Source: Escherichia phage vB_EcoM-pEB20. From it: a stretch of DNA of 64,000 bases. A model generated the notes under the pieces. It did not search any database. It was not told where the DNA came from and saw nothing but the letters and a program-made list of their open reading frames with translations. Location: the sequence record OP114733; one strand, written 5' to 3'. Shown here in pieces: positions 5,860 to 29,577 of this stretch. The translations under genes were made by a program, and so were the position numbers. Numbering within the stretch: the stretch's first letter is position 1; each line of letters begins with the position of its first letter.

Positions 5860-6024
5860 ATGACTACTTTAATTATTTGGTTTGATGAAAATGAAGAAAC
5901 ATACTGTGTGAATATTGGTGAAAGTCCAATGCCTGAATTTGAATCCTCGGATAAAAACTCTGTTGTATCTTGGGCTGAAGGTTATAAAGCAGCTAAAGGT
6001 GACGTTGAAATAATTTACATCTAA
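5860..6024 (+). CDS. small hypothetical protein (54 aa)
   Basis: Below track size cut-off; ATG 5860 preceded by AGAGGAG; translated by hand to stop at 6022-6024. Confidence 0.4.
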   Translation: MTTLIIWFDENEETYCVNIGESPMPEFESSDKNSVVSWAEGYKAAKGDVEIIYI

Positions 6025-6070
6025 GTAAGTTTATGTTATAGTAATCACAACAAATCAAGAGGAAAACAAA

Positions 6071-21913: not shown

Positions 21914-22387
21914 ATGATTATCAATGAAAACTCTTGGCATTTTAAAATTTATGCCGCGTTCAATAGTACATGGAATCGCCCGAAAACGTTGTGTGCTTAT
22001 TTTTGGAAAACGTTAATCCCAGTATTGGCTGTTTCAATTATTGGATTTGCGATTTTAGCAGCAGTCACAATCATTGGCCATGAAATTTTAACTAAATTCT
22101 TTGTTTTTAGCAGTCTATGGACATTAGTTCCAGCCTCAATTGGTGTAGGCATTTTATTGGTAGCAGTCATGGCTTTTATTTCTACCGGGTTGGTAATTGG
22201 TCCGTCTTGGTTGTTAGACAAATATAACGACAGAAAATATTATAAAGAAATTGAGCTCATTGCACAAAACCAAGAACGAATTAAAAATGGACTTGAGCCT
22301 ATTGAACGTAAGAAATCATTAATAGGCGAATACCTTAAAGCTCGTAAAGAAAAAGTCTGTCCTACTCTTGAATATAAGGCTAAATGA
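21914..22387 (+). CDS. membrane protein
   Basis: 157 aa with about 3 TM helices. Confidence 0.55.
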   Translation: MIINENSWHFKIYAAFNSTWNRPKTLCAYFWKTLIPVLAVSIIGFAILAAVTIIGHEILTKFFVFSSLWTLVPASIGVGILLVAVMAFISTGLVIGPSWLLDKYNDRKYYKEIELIAQNQERIKNGLEPIERKKSLIGEYLKARKEKVCPTLEYKAK

Positions 22388-23373
22388 TGAAAACAATTAT
22401 GAAAGGCTACTTTGGTAGCCACCTTTATGGAACGTCTACCCCAGAATCTGACGTTGATTTTAAAGAAATTTATGTCCCTCATGCTCGTGATATCTTGACC
22501 GGTAACGTTAAAGAACATATGAGCAAGAACACGAATAACACATCTTCTAAGAACACAAAAGACGACGTGGACCATGAGTTATATAGTCTCAAATATTTCT
22601 TTAAACTAGCTGCGGATGGTGAAACTGTCGCATTAGATATGCTTCACACTCCACCAAGTCTAGTAGTTAAATCTGATTTGCCTGATGTATGGAAGTATAT
22701 TCAAGATAACAGGTCTCGTTTCTATACCACTAACATGAAATCTTATTTAGGGTATGTCCGTAAGCAAGCTTCTAAATATGGTGTCAAGGGTTCTCGACTG
22801 GCTGTTCTTCGTCAAGCCCTTAAACGTTCTAATGAATGGGGACAATACTTTGATAACGGTGCAGTAATTCGTTTATCACATATGAAGAATGTTCTGCCTG
22901 TAGGTGAATTTGCTTCATGGGTTGAAATCGAAAACGAGAAAACAGGTAAGCAAACATTCTATAATCTGTTAGACCGTAAATTCCAAGACACGTTAACCAA
23001 TAAAGAGTTCAATGCCATCCTGGTTAAACTGGAAGAGAACTATGGTGAACGTGCTCGTAAGGCAGAAGCTAACGAAGGTATTGACTGGAAAGCATTGAGT
23101 CATGCATGTCGTGGTGGACTTCAATTATTGGAAATTTACAAAACCGGCGACCTGGTTTACCCACTTCAGGATGCTCCATTTATTCTCGATGTTAAGCTTG
23201 GTAAACATACGTTTAAAACTGTACAAGAATTCCTAGAAGATATCGTTGACCAAGTTGAACATGCGTCAGAACAAGCTGCCAAGAATGGTATGCAACAAAA
23301 AGTAGATATGAGTTTCTGGGATGATTTCCTTGAGCAGGTCTATCTCGAAAATCATAATTCTTACTATAAATAA
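22384..23373 (+). CDS. hypothetical protein with nucleotidyltransferase-like N-terminal motif
   Basis: 329 aa; GSHLYGTSTPESDVDF matches G-S...D-x-D NTase signature; unverified. Confidence 0.55.
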   Translation: MMKTIMKGYFGSHLYGTSTPESDVDFKEIYVPHARDILTGNVKEHMSKNTNNTSSKNTKDDVDHELYSLKYFFKLAADGETVALDMLHTPPSLVVKSDLPDVWKYIQDNRSRFYTTNMKSYLGYVRKQASKYGVKGSRLAVLRQALKRSNEWGQYFDNGAVIRLSHMKNVLPVGEFASWVEIENEKTGKQTFYNLLDRKFQDTLTNKEFNAILVKLEENYGERARKAEANEGIDWKALSHACRGGLQLLEIYKTGDLVYPLQDAPFILDVKLGKHTFKTVQEFLEDIVDQVEHASEQAAKNGMQQKVDMSFWDDFLEQVYLENHNSYYK

Positions 23374-23710: not shown

Positions 23711-23804
23711 AGGGGGTTAAAATATTTTTAAAAAGTGGTGTACATGCTTTTAGGATATGTTATTATAGACCTATCGAAACGAAATGAGTAAATTGGAGAA
23801 TAAA

Positions 23805-24785
23805 ATGTTCAACGTTCAAATCAAAAAAGGTATCTATCGTAATAACGAAATCTCTGGTTCTTATGTTGCCACAAAGACCTGGTTCCCGGCAAAGCTTAAT
23901 CCTGAATGTTCCCACTTAGGTGATGGTAAAATTTTCGTTATGATTGATGGTTCTGAACGTGGAGTATGGGTCTTCAAATCAGACATCGTAATGGAAGGAG
24001 TTGAGACGTCACCGGTTGCAGTTGTTGAAAGCACTGAAGATATGAAAACTCGTATCAACAAACGCTTTAAAGTAATGAACATGATGACGAATGGTATTAT
24101 CGATGGCAAAATTCGTTCACTCATTATTTCAGGTGCAGCCGGTATCGGTAAGACGTATTCTCTGGATAAAGCACTTAATAGTGCTAATGATAACGGTTTC
24201 ATCAAATACAAAAGCATTAATGGTAAAATCTCTGGTATTGGCCTTTACGAACAACTTTGGCTCAACCGTGATGCAGACAGCGTTCTCTTAATCGACGACG
24301 TTGATGTATTCTCAGATATGGATATCTTGAACCTTCTTAAAGCAGCATTAGATACCGGTGATAAACGCAAAGTTTGTTGGAGCACTGCGTCATCTTATCT
24401 TGATGATAAGGGTATTGATAAAGAATTTGAGTTTGAAGGTACTATCGTTTTCATTACAAACGTTGATATTGATAAAGAGTTAGAACGCGGTTCGAAACTT
24501 GCTCCGCACCTTCAAGCTTTAGTATCTCGTTCAGTGTATCTCGACCTTGGAGTACACTCTAATGAAGAGATTATGGTTCGAGTTGAAGATGTAATATTAT
24601 CTACTGACATGATGCAGAAACGTGGCTTGACTGATGCTGAAACGTACAAAGCATTGTCCTGGATGAAGGCTAACGTATCTCGTCTTCGCAATGTATCATT
24701 ACGTACGGCTCTTTATGTAGCAGATTTTATTTCAACTGATAAAGATGGTTGGGAGGAAATCTCTGAAGTAACTTTACTGAAATAA
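23805..24785 (+). CDS. AAA+ family ATPase
   Basis: 326 aa from ATG 23805 (GGAGAA SD); Walker A GAAGIGKT, Walker B VLLIDDVD. Confidence 0.7.
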   Translation: MFNVQIKKGIYRNNEISGSYVATKTWFPAKLNPECSHLGDGKIFVMIDGSERGVWVFKSDIVMEGVETSPVAVVESTEDMKTRINKRFKVMNMMTNGIIDGKIRSLIISGAAGIGKTYSLDKALNSANDNGFIKYKSINGKISGIGLYEQLWLNRDADSVLLIDDVDVFSDMDILNLLKAALDTGDKRKVCWSTASSYLDDKGIDKEFEFEGTIVFITNVDIDKELERGSKLAPHLQALVSRSVYLDLGVHSNEEIMVRVEDVILSTDMMQKRGLTDAETYKALSWMKANVSRLRNVSLRTALYVADFISTDKDGWEEISEVTLLK

Positions 24786-24923: not shown

Positions 24924-25211
24924 ATGGATTTTATGCAAAAAATTAAAGCCGCAGTCGAACTGTATGCTCATCGTATGGTTAGTTCTACAATGCAATATAG
25001 CGAGGAGGTTCGCCAGGACTCTTCCTTGAAAGGAAAAACTAAAGCCTTAATTACCTTAGATCGTTTGCAAAAGAATGCCATAGAGATGCTCCAGTACGAC
25101 AAGGGTGTATATAAGAAAGAACAGGAAGAGAAACTTAAATCTGAAAAATTACAAAAAATCCCGAAGTCTGTTTGGTTCAGTGGAAAAAATACCGAAAAAA
25201 GTTTCTTTTAG
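24924..25211 (+). CDS. hypothetical protein
   Basis: 95 aa with AGAGGA SD. Confidence 0.45.
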   Translation: MDFMQKIKAAVELYAHRMVSSTMQYSEEVRQDSSLKGKTKALITLDRLQKNAIEMLQYDKGVYKKEQEEKLKSEKLQKIPKSVWFSGKNTEKSFF

Positions 25212-25213
25212 TT

Positions 25214-25250
25214 GTTTACAAGGTCTATGGTTATGTTATTATAGACCTAT
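25214..25250 (+). promoter_or_regulatory. early promoter with IR AGGTCTAT/ATAGACCT
   Basis: GTTTACA 25214, -10 TATTAT 25237. Confidence 0.5.
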
Positions 25251-25269
25251 CAACTACTGGAGGTAAAAC

Positions 25270-25797
25270 ATGAACGCTAAAGATATTTTCAACCTGGTAA
25301 ATTATAACGACGGTAAATTTAAATCTGAAGCACAAAGCAAGTTCTTTAATGACGTTGCTTATGGTAACGAGATTACCGTGGACGGAGGTCAGATTTTCAA
25401 ATCTCGCTGGAATTGGATTGTTATCATCGATTCAGTTGGAATTGTGGAAGTCTACAAAAACACTAACAAAAAACGTACATTATTCTGGTCTCGTGAAACT
25501 AACGAGCAGTACAAAAAGGATAAAGCATCTCGTTTATCCAAAGTAACCCAGGAAGATATCGAGTTTATCAAGAAAGATATCGAGATGTACGAAAATTTAA
25601 TCGCTGAAGACCAGGCAGTACTCGATAAGTTTGATGAAATTAAAGCTTCTCGTGAAATCCCTGACTTCATGAAAGAATCAGTAAACGAACGATACGCTCT
25701 CACTTCAGAACGTATTGCAAACTATACAAAACAGAAAGCAGAACGTATTAGTACTCTTCGGAAATTTGAAGAACGTTTAAAGACGGTTCACGCATAA
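25270..25797 (+). CDS. hypothetical protein
   Basis: 175 aa ORF. Confidence 0.55.
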   Translation: MNAKDIFNLVNYNDGKFKSEAQSKFFNDVAYGNEITVDGGQIFKSRWNWIVIIDSVGIVEVYKNTNKKRTLFWSRETNEQYKKDKASRLSKVTQEDIEFIKKDIEMYENLIAEDQAVLDKFDEIKASREIPDFMKESVNERYALTSERIANYTKQKAERISTLRKFEERLKTVHA

Positions 25798-25799
25798 AC

Positions 25800-25824
25800 G
25801 CTTTACCCAAGGACGGGTTATAAT
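25800..25824 (+). promoter_or_regulatory. middle (MotA-type) promoter candidate
   Basis: MotA-box-like GCTTTAC at 25800, 12 nt, TATAAT at 25819. Confidence 0.45.
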
Positions 25825-25859
25825 GGTTCTGAGTTCCAATTCAATCTGAGGAAATAGTT

Positions 25860-26855
25860 ATGAGCATTACATCTGATGCGGTAAAACATGAAATTAACGG
25901 TTTATGTGCTTCACAGATTAAAGTGTGGTTTAAAGACCATAATGATCGCAGAGCACTTAATTATGAACAAATTGCTATCCAAGTTCATCAATTACTGGTT
26001 AGTAAATTTGATTTTCATATGCCGTCTGAAATCTATACTAATCTGCCGCGAGCACTTATTAAAGCGTGTAAAGGTTATGGAAAATCAATGGCTGATGGAA
26101 TCTTCAGCGCGCTGAATAAACTTAACGTTCTGTCGATGATTAACTCTAACAACATCCTTCGTAATCTAGGACGTACTGATTTGTTCGGTCGTGAACAGGG
26201 TAAAATGCCTTTGAAATGGATTGTTGCTCATCTTAACGAGAACCAAACACGTTTTATGGCCGTAACAGCACGCTTACAAATGGGCCTAGATCGTCAGATG
26301 AACTTTAAAACTCATCCACGTTATTCAGGTTCAACTGACTTTTATAAATGTGAGCTTCAAAAGGTTGCAGGTAAAACTGTCTTAGTAGTTCGTGTAACGT
26401 TTGAAGGACGACGTCAAGGATATTTTGACATAATCGGCTCCGGGCTTAAACATTGTGGATTTATCGACGAAGTTGATATCAAGCGAGACGGCATTGGATA
26501 CCGTATTGGATATGTTTGTACTCTTAAAGAAGAGATTTCAGGACCAGCACCAGGACTAAAAGACGTTAGATATAAAGACGAGCTCATTGAAGAAATAAAA
26601 GAAGTTGAATATGATATCAACCAAGAAGATGCTCTTAAAGACCTTATTGACGAACTAAACCAAGACTTTATTCCGGTTCAGAAATTTGAATCAAAACATG
26701 CTGAGCAAATCAAATACTTTGAAGCTTTGATTAACGAACTTAATGTAACTATTCAACAGACCGACGATGAAATCTCACGATTAGCAGGCTTAAATGGTAA
26801 AAATAAAACAGAACGAGCTAATCTTATTCAAGTAGTAAAACTTCTTAAGGAATGA
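25860..26855 (+). CDS. hypothetical protein with C-terminal coiled coil
   Basis: 331 aa ORF. Confidence 0.6.
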   Translation: MSITSDAVKHEINGLCASQIKVWFKDHNDRRALNYEQIAIQVHQLLVSKFDFHMPSEIYTNLPRALIKACKGYGKSMADGIFSALNKLNVLSMINSNNILRNLGRTDLFGREQGKMPLKWIVAHLNENQTRFMAVTARLQMGLDRQMNFKTHPRYSGSTDFYKCELQKVAGKTVLVVRVTFEGRRQGYFDIIGSGLKHCGFIDEVDIKRDGIGYRIGYVCTLKEEISGPAPGLKDVRYKDELIEEIKEVEYDINQEDALKDLIDELNQDFIPVQKFESKHAEQIKYFEALINELNVTIQQTDDEISRLAGLNGKNKTERANLIQVVKLLKE

Positions 26856-26884
26856 TGTACAACCAAGGAAGGTTGGAGTATAAT
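26856..26884 (+). promoter_or_regulatory. early promoter, near-identical to copy at 27851
   Basis: TGTACA..CAACCAAGGAAGGTTGGAG..TATAAT. Confidence 0.5.
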
Positions 26885-26910
26885 AAATTTTTCAACATGA
26901 GGAATATAAA

Positions 26911-27846
26911 ATGGCTTCTATTACACGTAGAGAACTTATCAAAGAATTTACCTCGAACGCATATACCCCAGGACCTAATCCTATCCGTATGCCTGTAAAG
27001 ACTCCTGAAGAGATTGAGGAAATCTGTTCATATTATGGGATTAATTCTCGTAAGTTTACTCAATTTGAATGCGTTACTAACACACCCGTTAAAGAGTTCA
27101 TTAAAAATGGTGAGTTCAGCCGTTTATTAGCCAAACAGAAACTTCGTAATTTTTGTATCGGCGGTTACGGACAATATTTCGCTAAGCAGTTCCGGAATAA
27201 CCTTAACAATCTGATGGCCATTGCTTCTCGTATTCGTCCTCAAGCAATTAACATGAAACATTTGAAATATACTTACGATAAGTTGGAAATCATGGTTATC
27301 AGTGAGAATGAGTTCACTCTCACGTATAAACCTAAGAATGATAACGTTGCTCGTGTATTCCACCAAGCGTTGGAAGTGTTAGGTGATAATATTCACCAGA
27401 TTAAAGCAATTTATTCTCGTGAGCTTAATATTATCAACCCTATCAAGAATAAGGGCCATATCGCTATCCAGGCTCGTGTATCTATTGGTAAAAAGGTTCC
27501 TGCGCCATGGTGGCACAAAGACTCTGAATACTATCAAAATCTTAAAAAGGAAAATGCAACGTTCGAAGCGTCAATTACTGCAACACCAATTGGCCATGCT
27601 GAAGTTCTAGGTGCATATTCTACTGCTCCATCTATACACATTTCACCGTCGACTAAACTGGAAATCTCTAACGGTCTTCTTCCTGCCGAAGATTACCATT
27701 ATAATCAAATCAAGGCCACTGTAGACCAACTATCCGTTGAACTTGACAAAGCACAAGCTAAGCTTCGTGATGCTCAACAAGTAGTTACCAAGCTCCAGTT
27801 GCAGTACTCTAAACTTTTTAACGCAATGAATGCGTTAAAATCATAA
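26911..27846 (+). CDS. hypothetical protein with C-terminal coiled coil
   Basis: 311 aa ORF. Confidence 0.6.
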   Translation: MASITRRELIKEFTSNAYTPGPNPIRMPVKTPEEIEEICSYYGINSRKFTQFECVTNTPVKEFIKNGEFSRLLAKQKLRNFCIGGYGQYFAKQFRNNLNNLMAIASRIRPQAINMKHLKYTYDKLEIMVISENEFTLTYKPKNDNVARVFHQALEVLGDNIHQIKAIYSRELNIINPIKNKGHIAIQARVSIGKKVPAPWWHKDSEYYQNLKKENATFEASITATPIGHAEVLGAYSTAPSIHISPSTKLEISNGLLPAEDYHYNQIKATVDQLSVELDKAQAKLRDAQQVVTKLQLQYSKLFNAMNALKS

Positions 27847-27850
27847 ATCA

Positions 27851-27880
27851 GTTTACAACCAAGGATGGTTGGAGTATAAT
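27851..27880 (+). promoter_or_regulatory. early promoter, near-identical to copy at 26856
   Basis: GTTTACA 27851, CAACCAAGGATGGTTGGAG, TATAAT 27875. Confidence 0.55.
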
Positions 27881-27908
27881 GAATTTATCTTAACGAGAGG
27901 AAAATATT

Positions 27909-28859
27909 ATGACACGTTCACATTACATTGAATACTTTGCAGGTCTTATCGCTAACGTTCATGCCCAACGTGCTTCTGGTGCACTAGGATTTGATGTTCC
28001 ACACCGAGATGTAGTAAGTGGTATTCTTCGCGATTTTGGTACATACACAGGCCAAGAAAATCATATCTGTAAAGATACTCAGAATGCGTATTCTCATTCA
28101 TTAGGGACGCTGCTTCAATGGTTCAAACGTTCTCGTTTATTATCTTCTACTGTAGCTCGCGATAACATTAAAAACTTTATGAAACCGAGCTTTATTAAAT
28201 CTGTGACATCTAAAACTGATTTGGTTGAATTCACTATTGTTAATGATGTTAAAAAGACTCATTTGGCTGATTGGTTATCTACCATTCCTGAAACTAAATT
28301 TGCTGATAAATTTGCTTGTGAATTCAATAAACAAGTGAATATGCTTTTTAAACATTCTCGTAAATTATTCACTGGCGGTGATGGCCGTACAAATAAAGTT
28401 CATGTTAAAGATTGGGTTACTGCAGTATTCAAACCAACTGGTAATGGTAACGCATCATTATCAATTGATATCCAGGTTCCTTATTACTACTCACGTAATC
28501 TCGGTACCATGAAAGCCGAAGAAATTAATAAGCACAACAAAACTATTCGTTCGTTGTCTTATAAACTTATTACATTGTTAGAGACTATGGATGTTGTTGA
28601 AACGTTCGACGAATCCGAAGATAACGGTTCAATGTTATATAGTTCTCGTACCCGAATTAAGTTGAAGAACCCTAACGAGTATAAACTTAAGACTATTAAA
28701 GAACCTAAAGTAGAAAAGGTTGATATCATGGCTGAAGAACGTGAATATCTCAAATCTCGTCTGAAAGAAGTCGAAGCCCAGATTGCAGAACAAACTAAAT
28801 CGTTAAAAGCTCTGAATGCGAAAGCGGATGGTTTACGAAATGCCATTGAGGTGTTATAA
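27909..28859 (+). CDS. hypothetical protein with C-terminal coiled coil
   Basis: 316 aa ORF. Confidence 0.6.
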   Translation: MTRSHYIEYFAGLIANVHAQRASGALGFDVPHRDVVSGILRDFGTYTGQENHICKDTQNAYSHSLGTLLQWFKRSRLLSSTVARDNIKNFMKPSFIKSVTSKTDLVEFTIVNDVKKTHLADWLSTIPETKFADKFACEFNKQVNMLFKHSRKLFTGGDGRTNKVHVKDWVTAVFKPTGNGNASLSIDIQVPYYYSRNLGTMKAEEINKHNKTIRSLSYKLITLLETMDVVETFDESEDNGSMLYSSRTRIKLKNPNEYKLKTIKEPKVEKVDIMAEEREYLKSRLKEVEAQIAEQTKSLKALNAKADGLRNAIEVL

Positions 28860-29164
28860 TGAGCCTACGTCTTTTAGAGGATATTGATATGAGCACTAAT
28901 CATGACTTGGTTAAGTTTATTGACGATAGTTCAAAGATTGAATTTGTTCAGCGAGATAAAATCCACGGTGAAGAAGAGTTCGTTCCTCCGGCATGGAACG
29001 AAATAATGAAAATGGTTGAACGACGTGAAAATGCTGCCAAATCGGCAGCAAAACATCCATGCCCGGAATGTGGAACTATCCAAGTCCAACTGGTTAACTG
29101 GACCACTGATAACTTGAAATTGAAATGCCGTAAATGCTTCCACAAATTTGAGAGAACATTATAA
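28859..29164 (+). CDS. zinc-ribbon hypothetical protein
   Basis: 101 aa; CPECG...CRKC. Confidence 0.5.
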   Translation: MSLRLLEDIDMSTNHDLVKFIDDSSKIEFVQRDKIHGEEEFVPPAWNEIMKMVERRENAAKSAAKHPCPECGTIQVQLVNWTTDNLKLKCRKCFHKFERTL

Positions 29165-29577
29165 TGAGATATAGCCTTCGTTGTTTTATCGCAGCTTTAG
29201 TTTTTGCTATTATTCCATTCATTTGGAACAGCCAGAATACTTACATGGAAACTAAAGTAATTCCTGTGGAGGTAGTGGAATTAATCTCAGGCCAATCTAC
29301 AGGAAAATATTCTAAATTAGAATTTATTGCAGTCTATAAAGATGAGCAAGGACGAGTTTTTGACAGGCGTGTATCACCGTCGTTTTATACGCTTCTGAAT
29401 AAAGGTGATACGATAGCTATAGAAATTCGTGAGATGGATATCAAACAAACTACTAAAGATAACTTGATTTGGTTCTTTGGTACGGTGTTGTTGGTTTCTA
29501 TCTGTATCACAGGTTTTATTACATGTATTGTATTTGGCATTGCATATTTAATCGATGAAAGGAAAAATAATGTTTAA
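29164..29577 (+). CDS. membrane protein
   Basis: 137 aa; N- and C-terminal TM helices. Confidence 0.5.
   Translation: MRYSLRCFIAALVFAIIPFIWNSQNTYMETKVIPVEVVELISGQSTGKYSKLEFIAVYKDEQGRVFDRRVSPSFYTLLNKGDTIAIEIREMDIKQTTKDNLIWFFGTVLLVSICITGFITCIVFGIAYLIDERKNNV

Follow-up and report, generated by a model that had tools for sequence, protein, structure and literature searches.

What are the three consecutive genes of similar size that stand side by side in the early region of Escherichia phage vB_EcoM-pEB20, and what might they do for the phage? They lie in a stretch of 64,000 nucleotides (nt) from record OP114733, referred to below as the window, and are designated here as open reading frames (ORFs) 1–3: ORF1 (25860–26855, 331 amino acids (aa)), ORF2 (26911–27846, 311 aa) and ORF3 (27909–28859, 316 aa), all on the + strand. 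An initial annotation made from the sequence alone had placed the three genes correctly and proposed that they form a diversifying paralog family in a cassette-like organization. The explanation that we favor, and hold to be probable with some reserve, is that they represent the Mosigvirus version of the nrdC.6–nrdC.3 block of phage T4, that the encoded proteins are remote paralogs carried on promoter-early stem-loop (PeSL) cassettes, and that they putatively bind or inhibit host factors, defense proteins being the likeliest targets.

Over 8 kb around ORF1–3 the window is 96–97% identical to genomes of Mosigvirus (T4-like coliphages, e.g. LH01, APCEc01 and JS09), and its gene order agrees with the annotated APCEc01 record and with the T4 region that extends from nrdC.11 to gene 49. 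On these grounds the window is assigned to Mosigvirus, a group of T4-like coliphages, and ORF1–3 are identified as the local version of the T4 nrdC.6–nrdC.3 block, whose early genes are non-essential and lie in the hyperplastic region bounded by nrdC.11/tk and nrdC/gene 49. The T4 block has a fourth gene of similar size, nrdC.4, which is absent from the window phage though its product is a detectable paralog of ORF3. Opposite ORF1–3, the other strand holds short embedded ORFs only.

ORF1 corresponds to T4 NrdC.6 (29% identity over 269 columns, expect value (E) 2e-19), which is likewise placed after an nrdC.8-type gene. It matches phrog_2257 (E 1.6e-126), and its homologues carry the precomputed Pfam domain PF26899; at 331 aa it exceeds the 275 aa of the T4 RefSeq protein and the 295 aa found in other Tequatrovirus. 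ORF3 is the ortholog of T4 NrdC.3, with 57% identity over the full length (316 columns, E 2e-119), a match to phrog_1435 (E 5e-101) and the precomputed domain PF26897 on all of its homologues. ORF2, the counterpart of T4 NrdC.5, is more divergent (23% identity, E 1e-9; phrog_2351). It occupies the same genomic slot after an nrdC.6-type gene, is of similar size and shares the type of C-terminal coiled coil, ...NA(L/M)NAL(K/N). Membership in Pfam DUF7235 (PF23882) was defined as a full-length match above the gathering score of 30 bits; ORF2 reaches 384.5 bits (E 5.4e-115, residues 15–310 on profile positions 1–307), T4 NrdC.5 and the alleles of VR20 and CLB_P2 score 417–421 bits, and full-length matches are also obtained with T4 NrdC.5 and with the NrdC.5 alleles of Gaprivervirus and Dhakavirus. 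The same profile gives no match in ORF1 or ORF3 and matches T4 NrdC.3 at the coiled-coil end only (E 0.18). The ORF2 allele is confined to Mosigvirus genomes (132 records).

All three PHROG matches are to families of unknown function, Pfam searches with ORF1 and ORF3 return sub-threshold coiled-coil families only, and sequence searches of the PDB find no relative with a solved structure; across these domain and PDB sequence searches no enzymatic or DNA-binding domain was detected. Word-indexed homology searches with the ORFs retrieve close relatives only (4, 19 and 33 proteins), an exhaustive profile search with the ORF3 family yields 5 proteins among 1.84 billion representatives, and searches of the 64-kb window with hidden Markov models (HMMs) reveal no further family members elsewhere in it.

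In each protein, a C-terminal heptad helix follows an N-terminal and central part. With a register-based heptad score, the best 28-residue windows of each protein fall at the C-terminus, with scores that in every case lie above the 99.9th percentile of shuffled sequences. The helices are at aa 259–311 in ORF2 (nt 27685–27843) and aa 267–316 in ORF3 (nt 28707–28856). That of ORF1 is shorter by this score than the 40–50 residues proposed initially, at about 34 residues (aa 278–311); beyond a G-L-N-G break, a second short helix extends to aa 331 (nt 26691–26852 for the entire segment).

Whether the rest of the proteins is related as well is less easily seen. The initial annotation found no obvious similarity between the N-terminal domains, and in pairwise comparison this stands: BLASTP among ORF1–3 and their neighbors detects no similarity (E >= 1.3), and shallow profiles built from Mosigvirus only and compared directly give E 0.08–0.22, which is not significant. 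Such results, and the assignment to three separate PHROG and Pfam families, are what would be expected of three unrelated ORFans of chance-similar size with convergent or generic coiled coils, in which case any profile similarity would be an artefact of composition or of the coiled coil. Profile comparisons that include the T4-type NrdC.4 as a bridge give a different result. Diverse family alignments (15 loci, four genera) were compared by hhalign with no predicted secondary structure, either complete or with the coiled coil removed by cutting the last 65 residues. NrdC.4 matches NrdC.3 at E 6e-13 with and 3e-13 without the coiled coil, and NrdC.5 matches NrdC.4 at 5e-6 and 2.9e-5; for NrdC.6 against NrdC.3 and NrdC.4 combined the values are 7e-6 (240 columns) and 8e-4. 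Unrelated neighboring families, used as controls, give 0.09–0.8 with and 0.2–0.6 without the coiled coil. Two further comparisons of the truncated families are NrdC.5 with NrdC.3 (0.01) and NrdC.6 with NrdC.5 (0.1). In addition, the NrdC.4 HMM matches ORF3 at E 2e-11, and BLASTP links NrdC.4 and NrdC.3 over residues 3–267.

A joint alignment of the families shows motifs that are collinear and located outside the coiled coil. An N-terminal (M/K)TR.EYI..F is succeeded by a K.(S/G).(L/I)(S/T)...A...L.NF segment; then come a helix with F..FR..L...ASR(L/I) and an alpha/beta part; and a P.P(V/I) linker leads into the coiled coil, which ends in L..A(L/I)..LK. The best ORF2–ORF3 match obtained with the shallow profiles falls on this same motif helix. 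From these comparisons NrdC.3 (ORF3) and NrdC.4 appear as clear paralogs and NrdC.5 (ORF2) is probably related to NrdC.4, so that our reading is that of three remotely paralogous families; NrdC.6 (ORF1), which is weakly linked, is tentatively added as a probable fourth. The proposed paralog family is thus supported for ORF2 and ORF3 by way of NrdC.4, and the initial impression of dissimilar N-terminal parts does not extend to the profile level.

Several points weigh against this reading, besides the negative direct comparisons. The family alignments are small (8–40 sequences), the link depends on the NrdC.4 bridge, and the match of NrdC.6 drops to E 8e-4 upon removal of the coiled coil. AlphaFold2 models, made for ORF2 and ORF3, are of low confidence except for the N-terminal domain of ORF3 and the C-terminal helices (mean predicted local distance difference test (pLDDT) 55.8 for ORF3 and 39.4 for ORF2); they are too poor for their folds to be compared, and Foldseek against the PDB gave nothing significant. 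Too few homologues exist (the 5 noted above) for a deep alignment. Nevertheless, since the strongest matches persist at 3e-13 and 2.9e-5 in the truncated families, against 0.2–0.6 in the controls, we consider it unlikely that the three genes are unrelated ORFans.

What the models do contribute concerns the layout. ORF3 is predicted with a single long helix at residues 275–315, with mean pLDDT of 68–83 in 10-residue blocks over 281–316 and the helix start (275–280) within a block of mean 50; the corresponding helix of ORF2 covers residues 260–310 at pLDDT of about 50–63. The order of secondary structure elements is the same in both low-confidence models, the tertiary structure being unreliable. 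Taken with the joint alignment, this hints at a common layout of an N-terminal helical domain, the motif helix, an alpha/beta part, a linker and the coiled coil. A Foldseek search of BFVD with the ORF3 model recovered the NrdC.3 ortholog; proteins of similar size from Serratia PS2 and Acinetobacter Acj61 gave weak matches over the full length, with E 1e-4 to 5e-4 and template modeling scores of 0.24–0.33, and are mentioned as leads only. Folds resembling ARPC2, YbjN and type III secretion chaperones came up in the PDB at E 0.05–1.4 and were rejected as evidence.

The intergenic regions bear on the second part of the question, the cassette-like organization. PeSL elements are known from hyperplastic regions of T4-like genomes, and the early promoter consensus of T4/PST PeSLs is TTTACW-N17-TAYWAT (Arbiol et al., 2010, PMC2839356; Comeau et al., 2014, PMC4122927). 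Genes that lie between two PeSLs can be inserted, deleted or circularized by recombination of these elements, as shown in RB49/phi1, and mini-circles have been documented (PMC2839356; PMC4122927). Upstream of ORF2, an element at 26856–26910 (this and all elements below on the + strand) has a -35 box TGTACA (26856–26861), a -10 box TATAAT (26879–26884) and a GAGGA ribosome-binding site. Its counterpart upstream of ORF3 (27847–27908) has TTTACA (27852–27857), TATAAT (27875–27880) and GAGAGGA. Both promoters, TGTACA-N17-TATAAT and TTTACA-N17-TATAAT, are consensus matches and share a 27-nt core, TACAACCAAGGANGGTTGGAGTATAAT, that occurs nowhere else in the window, with 0 expected by chance. They also share a 36-nt direct repeat that flanks ORF2 (26858–26893 on the left, 27854–27889 on the right; 92% identity, 996 nt spacing), and the near-identity of the two promoters seen at the outset is thereby borne out. 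Each element also has a stem-loop with the stem CAACC/GGTTG, at 26860–26864/26871–26875 with the loop AAGGAA (26865–26870) before ORF2 and at 27856–27860/27867–27871 with the loop AAGGAT (27861–27866) before ORF3.

The likeness to PeSLs lies in the short repeated intergenic elements around non-essential genes, the TTTACW-N17-TAYWAT promoter, the stem-loop and the Shine-Dalgarno sequence, as well as in the occurrence of gene gain and loss junctions within the element, as at ORF2. We therefore classify the elements upstream of ORF2 and ORF3 as PeSL-type cassettes with a predicted early sigma-70-like promoter and a stem-loop, in line with the organization suspected from the outset. Before ORF3, a 10-bp hairpin, UUUUAACGCA / UGCGUUAAAA (27816–27840), sits at the 3´ end of ORF2 directly before the promoter, a position in which a PeSL would have its terminator-like stem-loop (PMC2839356). 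Three features fit less well. The conserved stem-loop is found inside the -35/-10 spacer here and upstream of the promoter in published PeSLs; only ORF3 has a second hairpin upstream of its promoter; and the element upstream of ORF1 (25798–25859, with TATAAT at 25819–25824 and a GAGGA ribosome-binding site) has its TTTACC only 11 nt from the TATAAT, with no promoter listed there by the consensus scan. This element does have a stem, ACCC/GGGT (25805–25808/25815–25818), with the loop AAGGAC (25809–25814), and because of the short spacer we regard it as a degenerate PeSL with no canonical sigma-70 promoter. The initial suggestion of a separate promoter for each gene is accordingly retained for ORF2 and ORF3, but not for ORF1. 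T4 differs in that nrdC.5 follows nrdC.6 with no recognizable promoter, whereas ORF2 is preceded by its own. A second promoter-like repeat pair occurs at 23719–23775 and 25195–25251 (57 nt, 74% identical; TGTACA/TTTACA-N16-TATTAT, then an identical AGACCTATC), upstream of the nrdC.10-like ATPase and the nrdC.8-like gene, and is PeSL-type of a different sequence class.

The stem-loop itself is conserved well beyond the window. Among 13 distinct variants from Mosigvirus, Tequatrovirus, Dhakavirus and Gaprivervirus, the loop AAGGAY is invariant and located between the -35 and -10 boxes. In the 5-bp stem, 93.8% of the cells are paired, and two-sided changes occur in 16 cells and affect 4/5 of the stem pairs; the observed covariation score is reached by 0/500 shuffles, and slid-register controls score far lower. 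Stem variants from the window, T4 and other loci include AACC/GGTT, ACCC/GGGT, ATCC/GGAT, AGCC/GGCT, CCAC/GTGG and TTCC/GGAG, and several copies are directly followed by GGAG. The stems are of 4–7 bp and weak (-5 to -7 kcal/mol) and have no U-tract; being short and devoid of a U-tract, they are doubtful as terminators. The hairpin could have a role in RNA processing, protein binding or recombination. A further interpretation is that the AAGGAY hairpin, as an RNA processing or stability signal, a protein-binding site or a recombination site, is the main functional element, and that the genes, themselves of little function, are passengers on regulatory cassettes that are mobile. The covarying stem and invariant loop in four genera, a recombination junction inside the element (below) and the documented PeSL mini-circles speak in its favor, but purifying selection on the genes, their conservation in hundreds of genomes and the demonstrated phenotype of one relative, NrdC.5, speak against it, and we find it very improbable.

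That the elements are sites of gene exchange is seen in the Mosigvirus phage ESCO47, which is devoid of ORF2. Its single intergenic region is composed of the left part of the ORF1–ORF2 spacer and an ORF3-like right part, with the junction within the repeat core (positions 5949–6039 of the ESCO47 locus, L010, against 26826–26913 and 27822–27911 in the window). The resulting hairpin is a mispaired hybrid with the left arm CAACC and the right arm GGATG, consistent with two different elements having crossed over within the loop. The junction is what recombination of the two flanking PeSLs would be expected to leave, and it is by such recombination between repeated cores that whole genes are added, removed or swapped. 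Across T4-like genomes, to which a scan of IMG/VR contributed 7 loci only, the block is conserved in hundreds of genomes with gene sets that differ by genus: Tequatrovirus has NrdC.6, NrdC.5, NrdC.4 and NrdC.3; Mosigvirus has NrdC.6, the divergent NrdC.5 and NrdC.3; and Dhakavirus and Gaprivervirus have NrdC.6, another NrdC.5 allele and NrdC.4, and no NrdC.3.

Deletions and fusions are found in individual phages as well (ACG-C40, ELT1, Pinarejo and P0056). In P0056, the microhomology FN(K/D)(-/Q)VN joins NrdC.5, up to about residue 270, with the part of NrdC.3 that begins near residue 137. Recombination of paralogs at homologous positions was considered for this fusion and rejected; it is a microhomology deletion and shows plasticity only. 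Of NrdC.5 and NrdC.3, ACG-C40 (L015, 5805–6213) retains no more than an N-terminal fragment and a C-terminal remnant, respectively. ELT1 (L011, 6944–7513) has a truncated gene of 179–189 aa in the nrdC.4 slot, followed by a 90-aa ORF; the truncated gene is closest to NrdC.3 (64% identity) and 30% identical to NrdC.4.

ORF1–3 also differ from their surroundings in divergence. Between the window and T4 they are 23–57% identical, compared with 77–92% for the flanking nrdC.10, nrdC.8, nrdC and gene 49. Within Mosigvirus, the gene-wide ratio of nonsynonymous to synonymous substitution rates (dN/dS) is 0.09–0.24 for ORF1–3 and 0.02–0.09 for nrdC.10 and nrdC.11; ORF1–3 are therefore functional and under purifying selection, and no gene-wide positive selection is detectable. 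"Diversifying", as used in the initial annotation, does not apply in the sense of positive selection. In ESCO47, dS of ORF1 is 1.2 against about 0.15 in the flanks. The diversity is best attributed to old divergence, allele replacement and gene gain and loss between genera.

As to function, evidence comes from T4. A deletion mutant fails to plate on cells with Dsr1, a SIR2-domain defense protein of E. coli ECOR17, and expression of nrdC.5 restores plating (Srikant et al., 2022, PMC9391042). T4 nrdC.3 to nrdC.6 tolerate transposon insertions and are not required in the laboratory host (HIDEN-SEQ supplement). Just downstream of the block, T4/T6 encode NrdC.1, which inhibits Septu, and Gp49.2, which inhibits OLD, in addition to Pin. 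Based on its similarity to NrdC.5, ORF2 is a candidate counterpart of the protein that overcomes Dsr1. More generally, ORF1–3 are most likely early-expressed binders or inhibitors of host defense or other host proteins, the anti-defense role being suggested by the effect of nrdC.5 on Dsr1 and by the neighbors that inhibit Septu and OLD. Expressed soon after infection, the proteins would bind or inhibit host factors stoichiometrically, with anti-phage defense proteins as the likeliest targets; the coiled coil would mediate oligomerization, and the variable, divergent body would provide target specificity. Two considerations temper this proposal. At 23% identity to T4 NrdC.5, ORF2 need not target Dsr1, and the known phenotype within the family is that of NrdC.5, so that the roles proposed for NrdC.3, NrdC.4 and NrdC.6 are putative.

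There is an alternative in which the genes encode early factors for host takeover or housekeeping, acting on the nucleoid, transcription, the envelope or nucleotide metabolism, and the effect of NrdC.5 on Dsr1 is indirect. A single family member has a phenotype, the published experiment is a rescue and does not address binding, and, like many takeover genes of T4, these are early genes that are non-essential and have a narrow distribution. However, the T4/T6 genes just downstream include defense inhibitors, host-range or anti-defense genes would be expected to vary among close relatives by presence/absence and allele replacement, as these do, and neither an enzymatic nor a DNA-binding domain was detected in the searches above. 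We regard the takeover alternative as doubtful and prefer inhibition of defense. In a bolder version of the preferred reading, NrdC.3–6 would constitute one early superfamily with coiled-coil tails, each family or allele neutralizing a different host immune protein, with Dsr1 as the first known target, and the AAGGAY hairpin in the promoter would be a dedicated recombination or processing site by which self-expressing inhibitor cassettes are shuffled between T-even phages. This combined proposal is speculative, and we put it forward as a possibility well short of even odds.

Much of the locus is explained by existing knowledge: hundreds of T-even genomes contain the genes, which are known as hypothetical, and the architecture of the cassettes has been described before. 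New here are the ancient paralogy of NrdC.3, NrdC.4, NrdC.5 and probably NrdC.6, with hints of a common layout, and the promoter-embedded AAGGAY hairpin with compensatory stem changes, which offers a precise handle on cassette exchange. Both may come as little surprise to a T4 specialist, and both are directly testable. Since one member, NrdC.5, is a proven counter-defense protein, ORF1, ORF3 and the divergent ORF2 allele are reasonable candidates in screens for inhibitors of other E. coli defense systems.

The genes around the block complete the picture. Upstream are an nrdC.11-like nucleotidyltransferase (22384–23373), an nrdC.10-like P-loop ATPase/NTPase with weak STAND/AAA matches (23784–24785, +), an nrdC.9-like ORF (24924–25211, +) and an nrdC.8-like ORF of 175 aa (25270–25797, +). 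The nrdC.11-like and nrdC.10-like genes are 77–99% conserved across genera, in contrast to ORF1–3, and the nrdC.10-like ATPase is missing from VR20. The nrdC.8-like protein has a heptad-rich C-terminal segment (aa 146–173); hhalign against the NrdC.3–6 families gives E 0.1–0.8, and no relationship is established by this comparison. A 175-aa protein of Klebsiella phage KPV15 is among the weak structural matches of the ORF3 model. Downstream, the start of an nrdC.2-like gene (28859–29164, +) overlaps the stop of ORF3 (TAATG, 28857–28861) and is followed by an nrdC.7-like membrane protein (29164–29577, +; 41% identical to T4 NrdC.7) and by the NrdC glutaredoxin/thioredoxin (+), this downstream group reaching to 29833, with further overlaps at 29164 and 29555–29577. 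Because of the overlapping starts and stops from ORF3 to nrdC, the ORF3 promoter probably drives a multi-gene transcript that reaches nrdC. In T4 and other Tequatrovirus, nrdC.7 is placed after nrdC.8 and before nrdC.6; here it is downstream of the nrdC.2-like gene, which indicates relocation inside the block. Finally, domain searches detect no thioredoxin domain in ORF1–3, and yet many GenBank records (e.g. MN850622, OM386662 and MZ892903) label every nrdC.x gene from nrdC.2 to nrdC.11 as "thioredoxin"; these labels appear to result from propagation of the name from nrdC.x locus tags, only NrdC itself being a thioredoxin/glutaredoxin.

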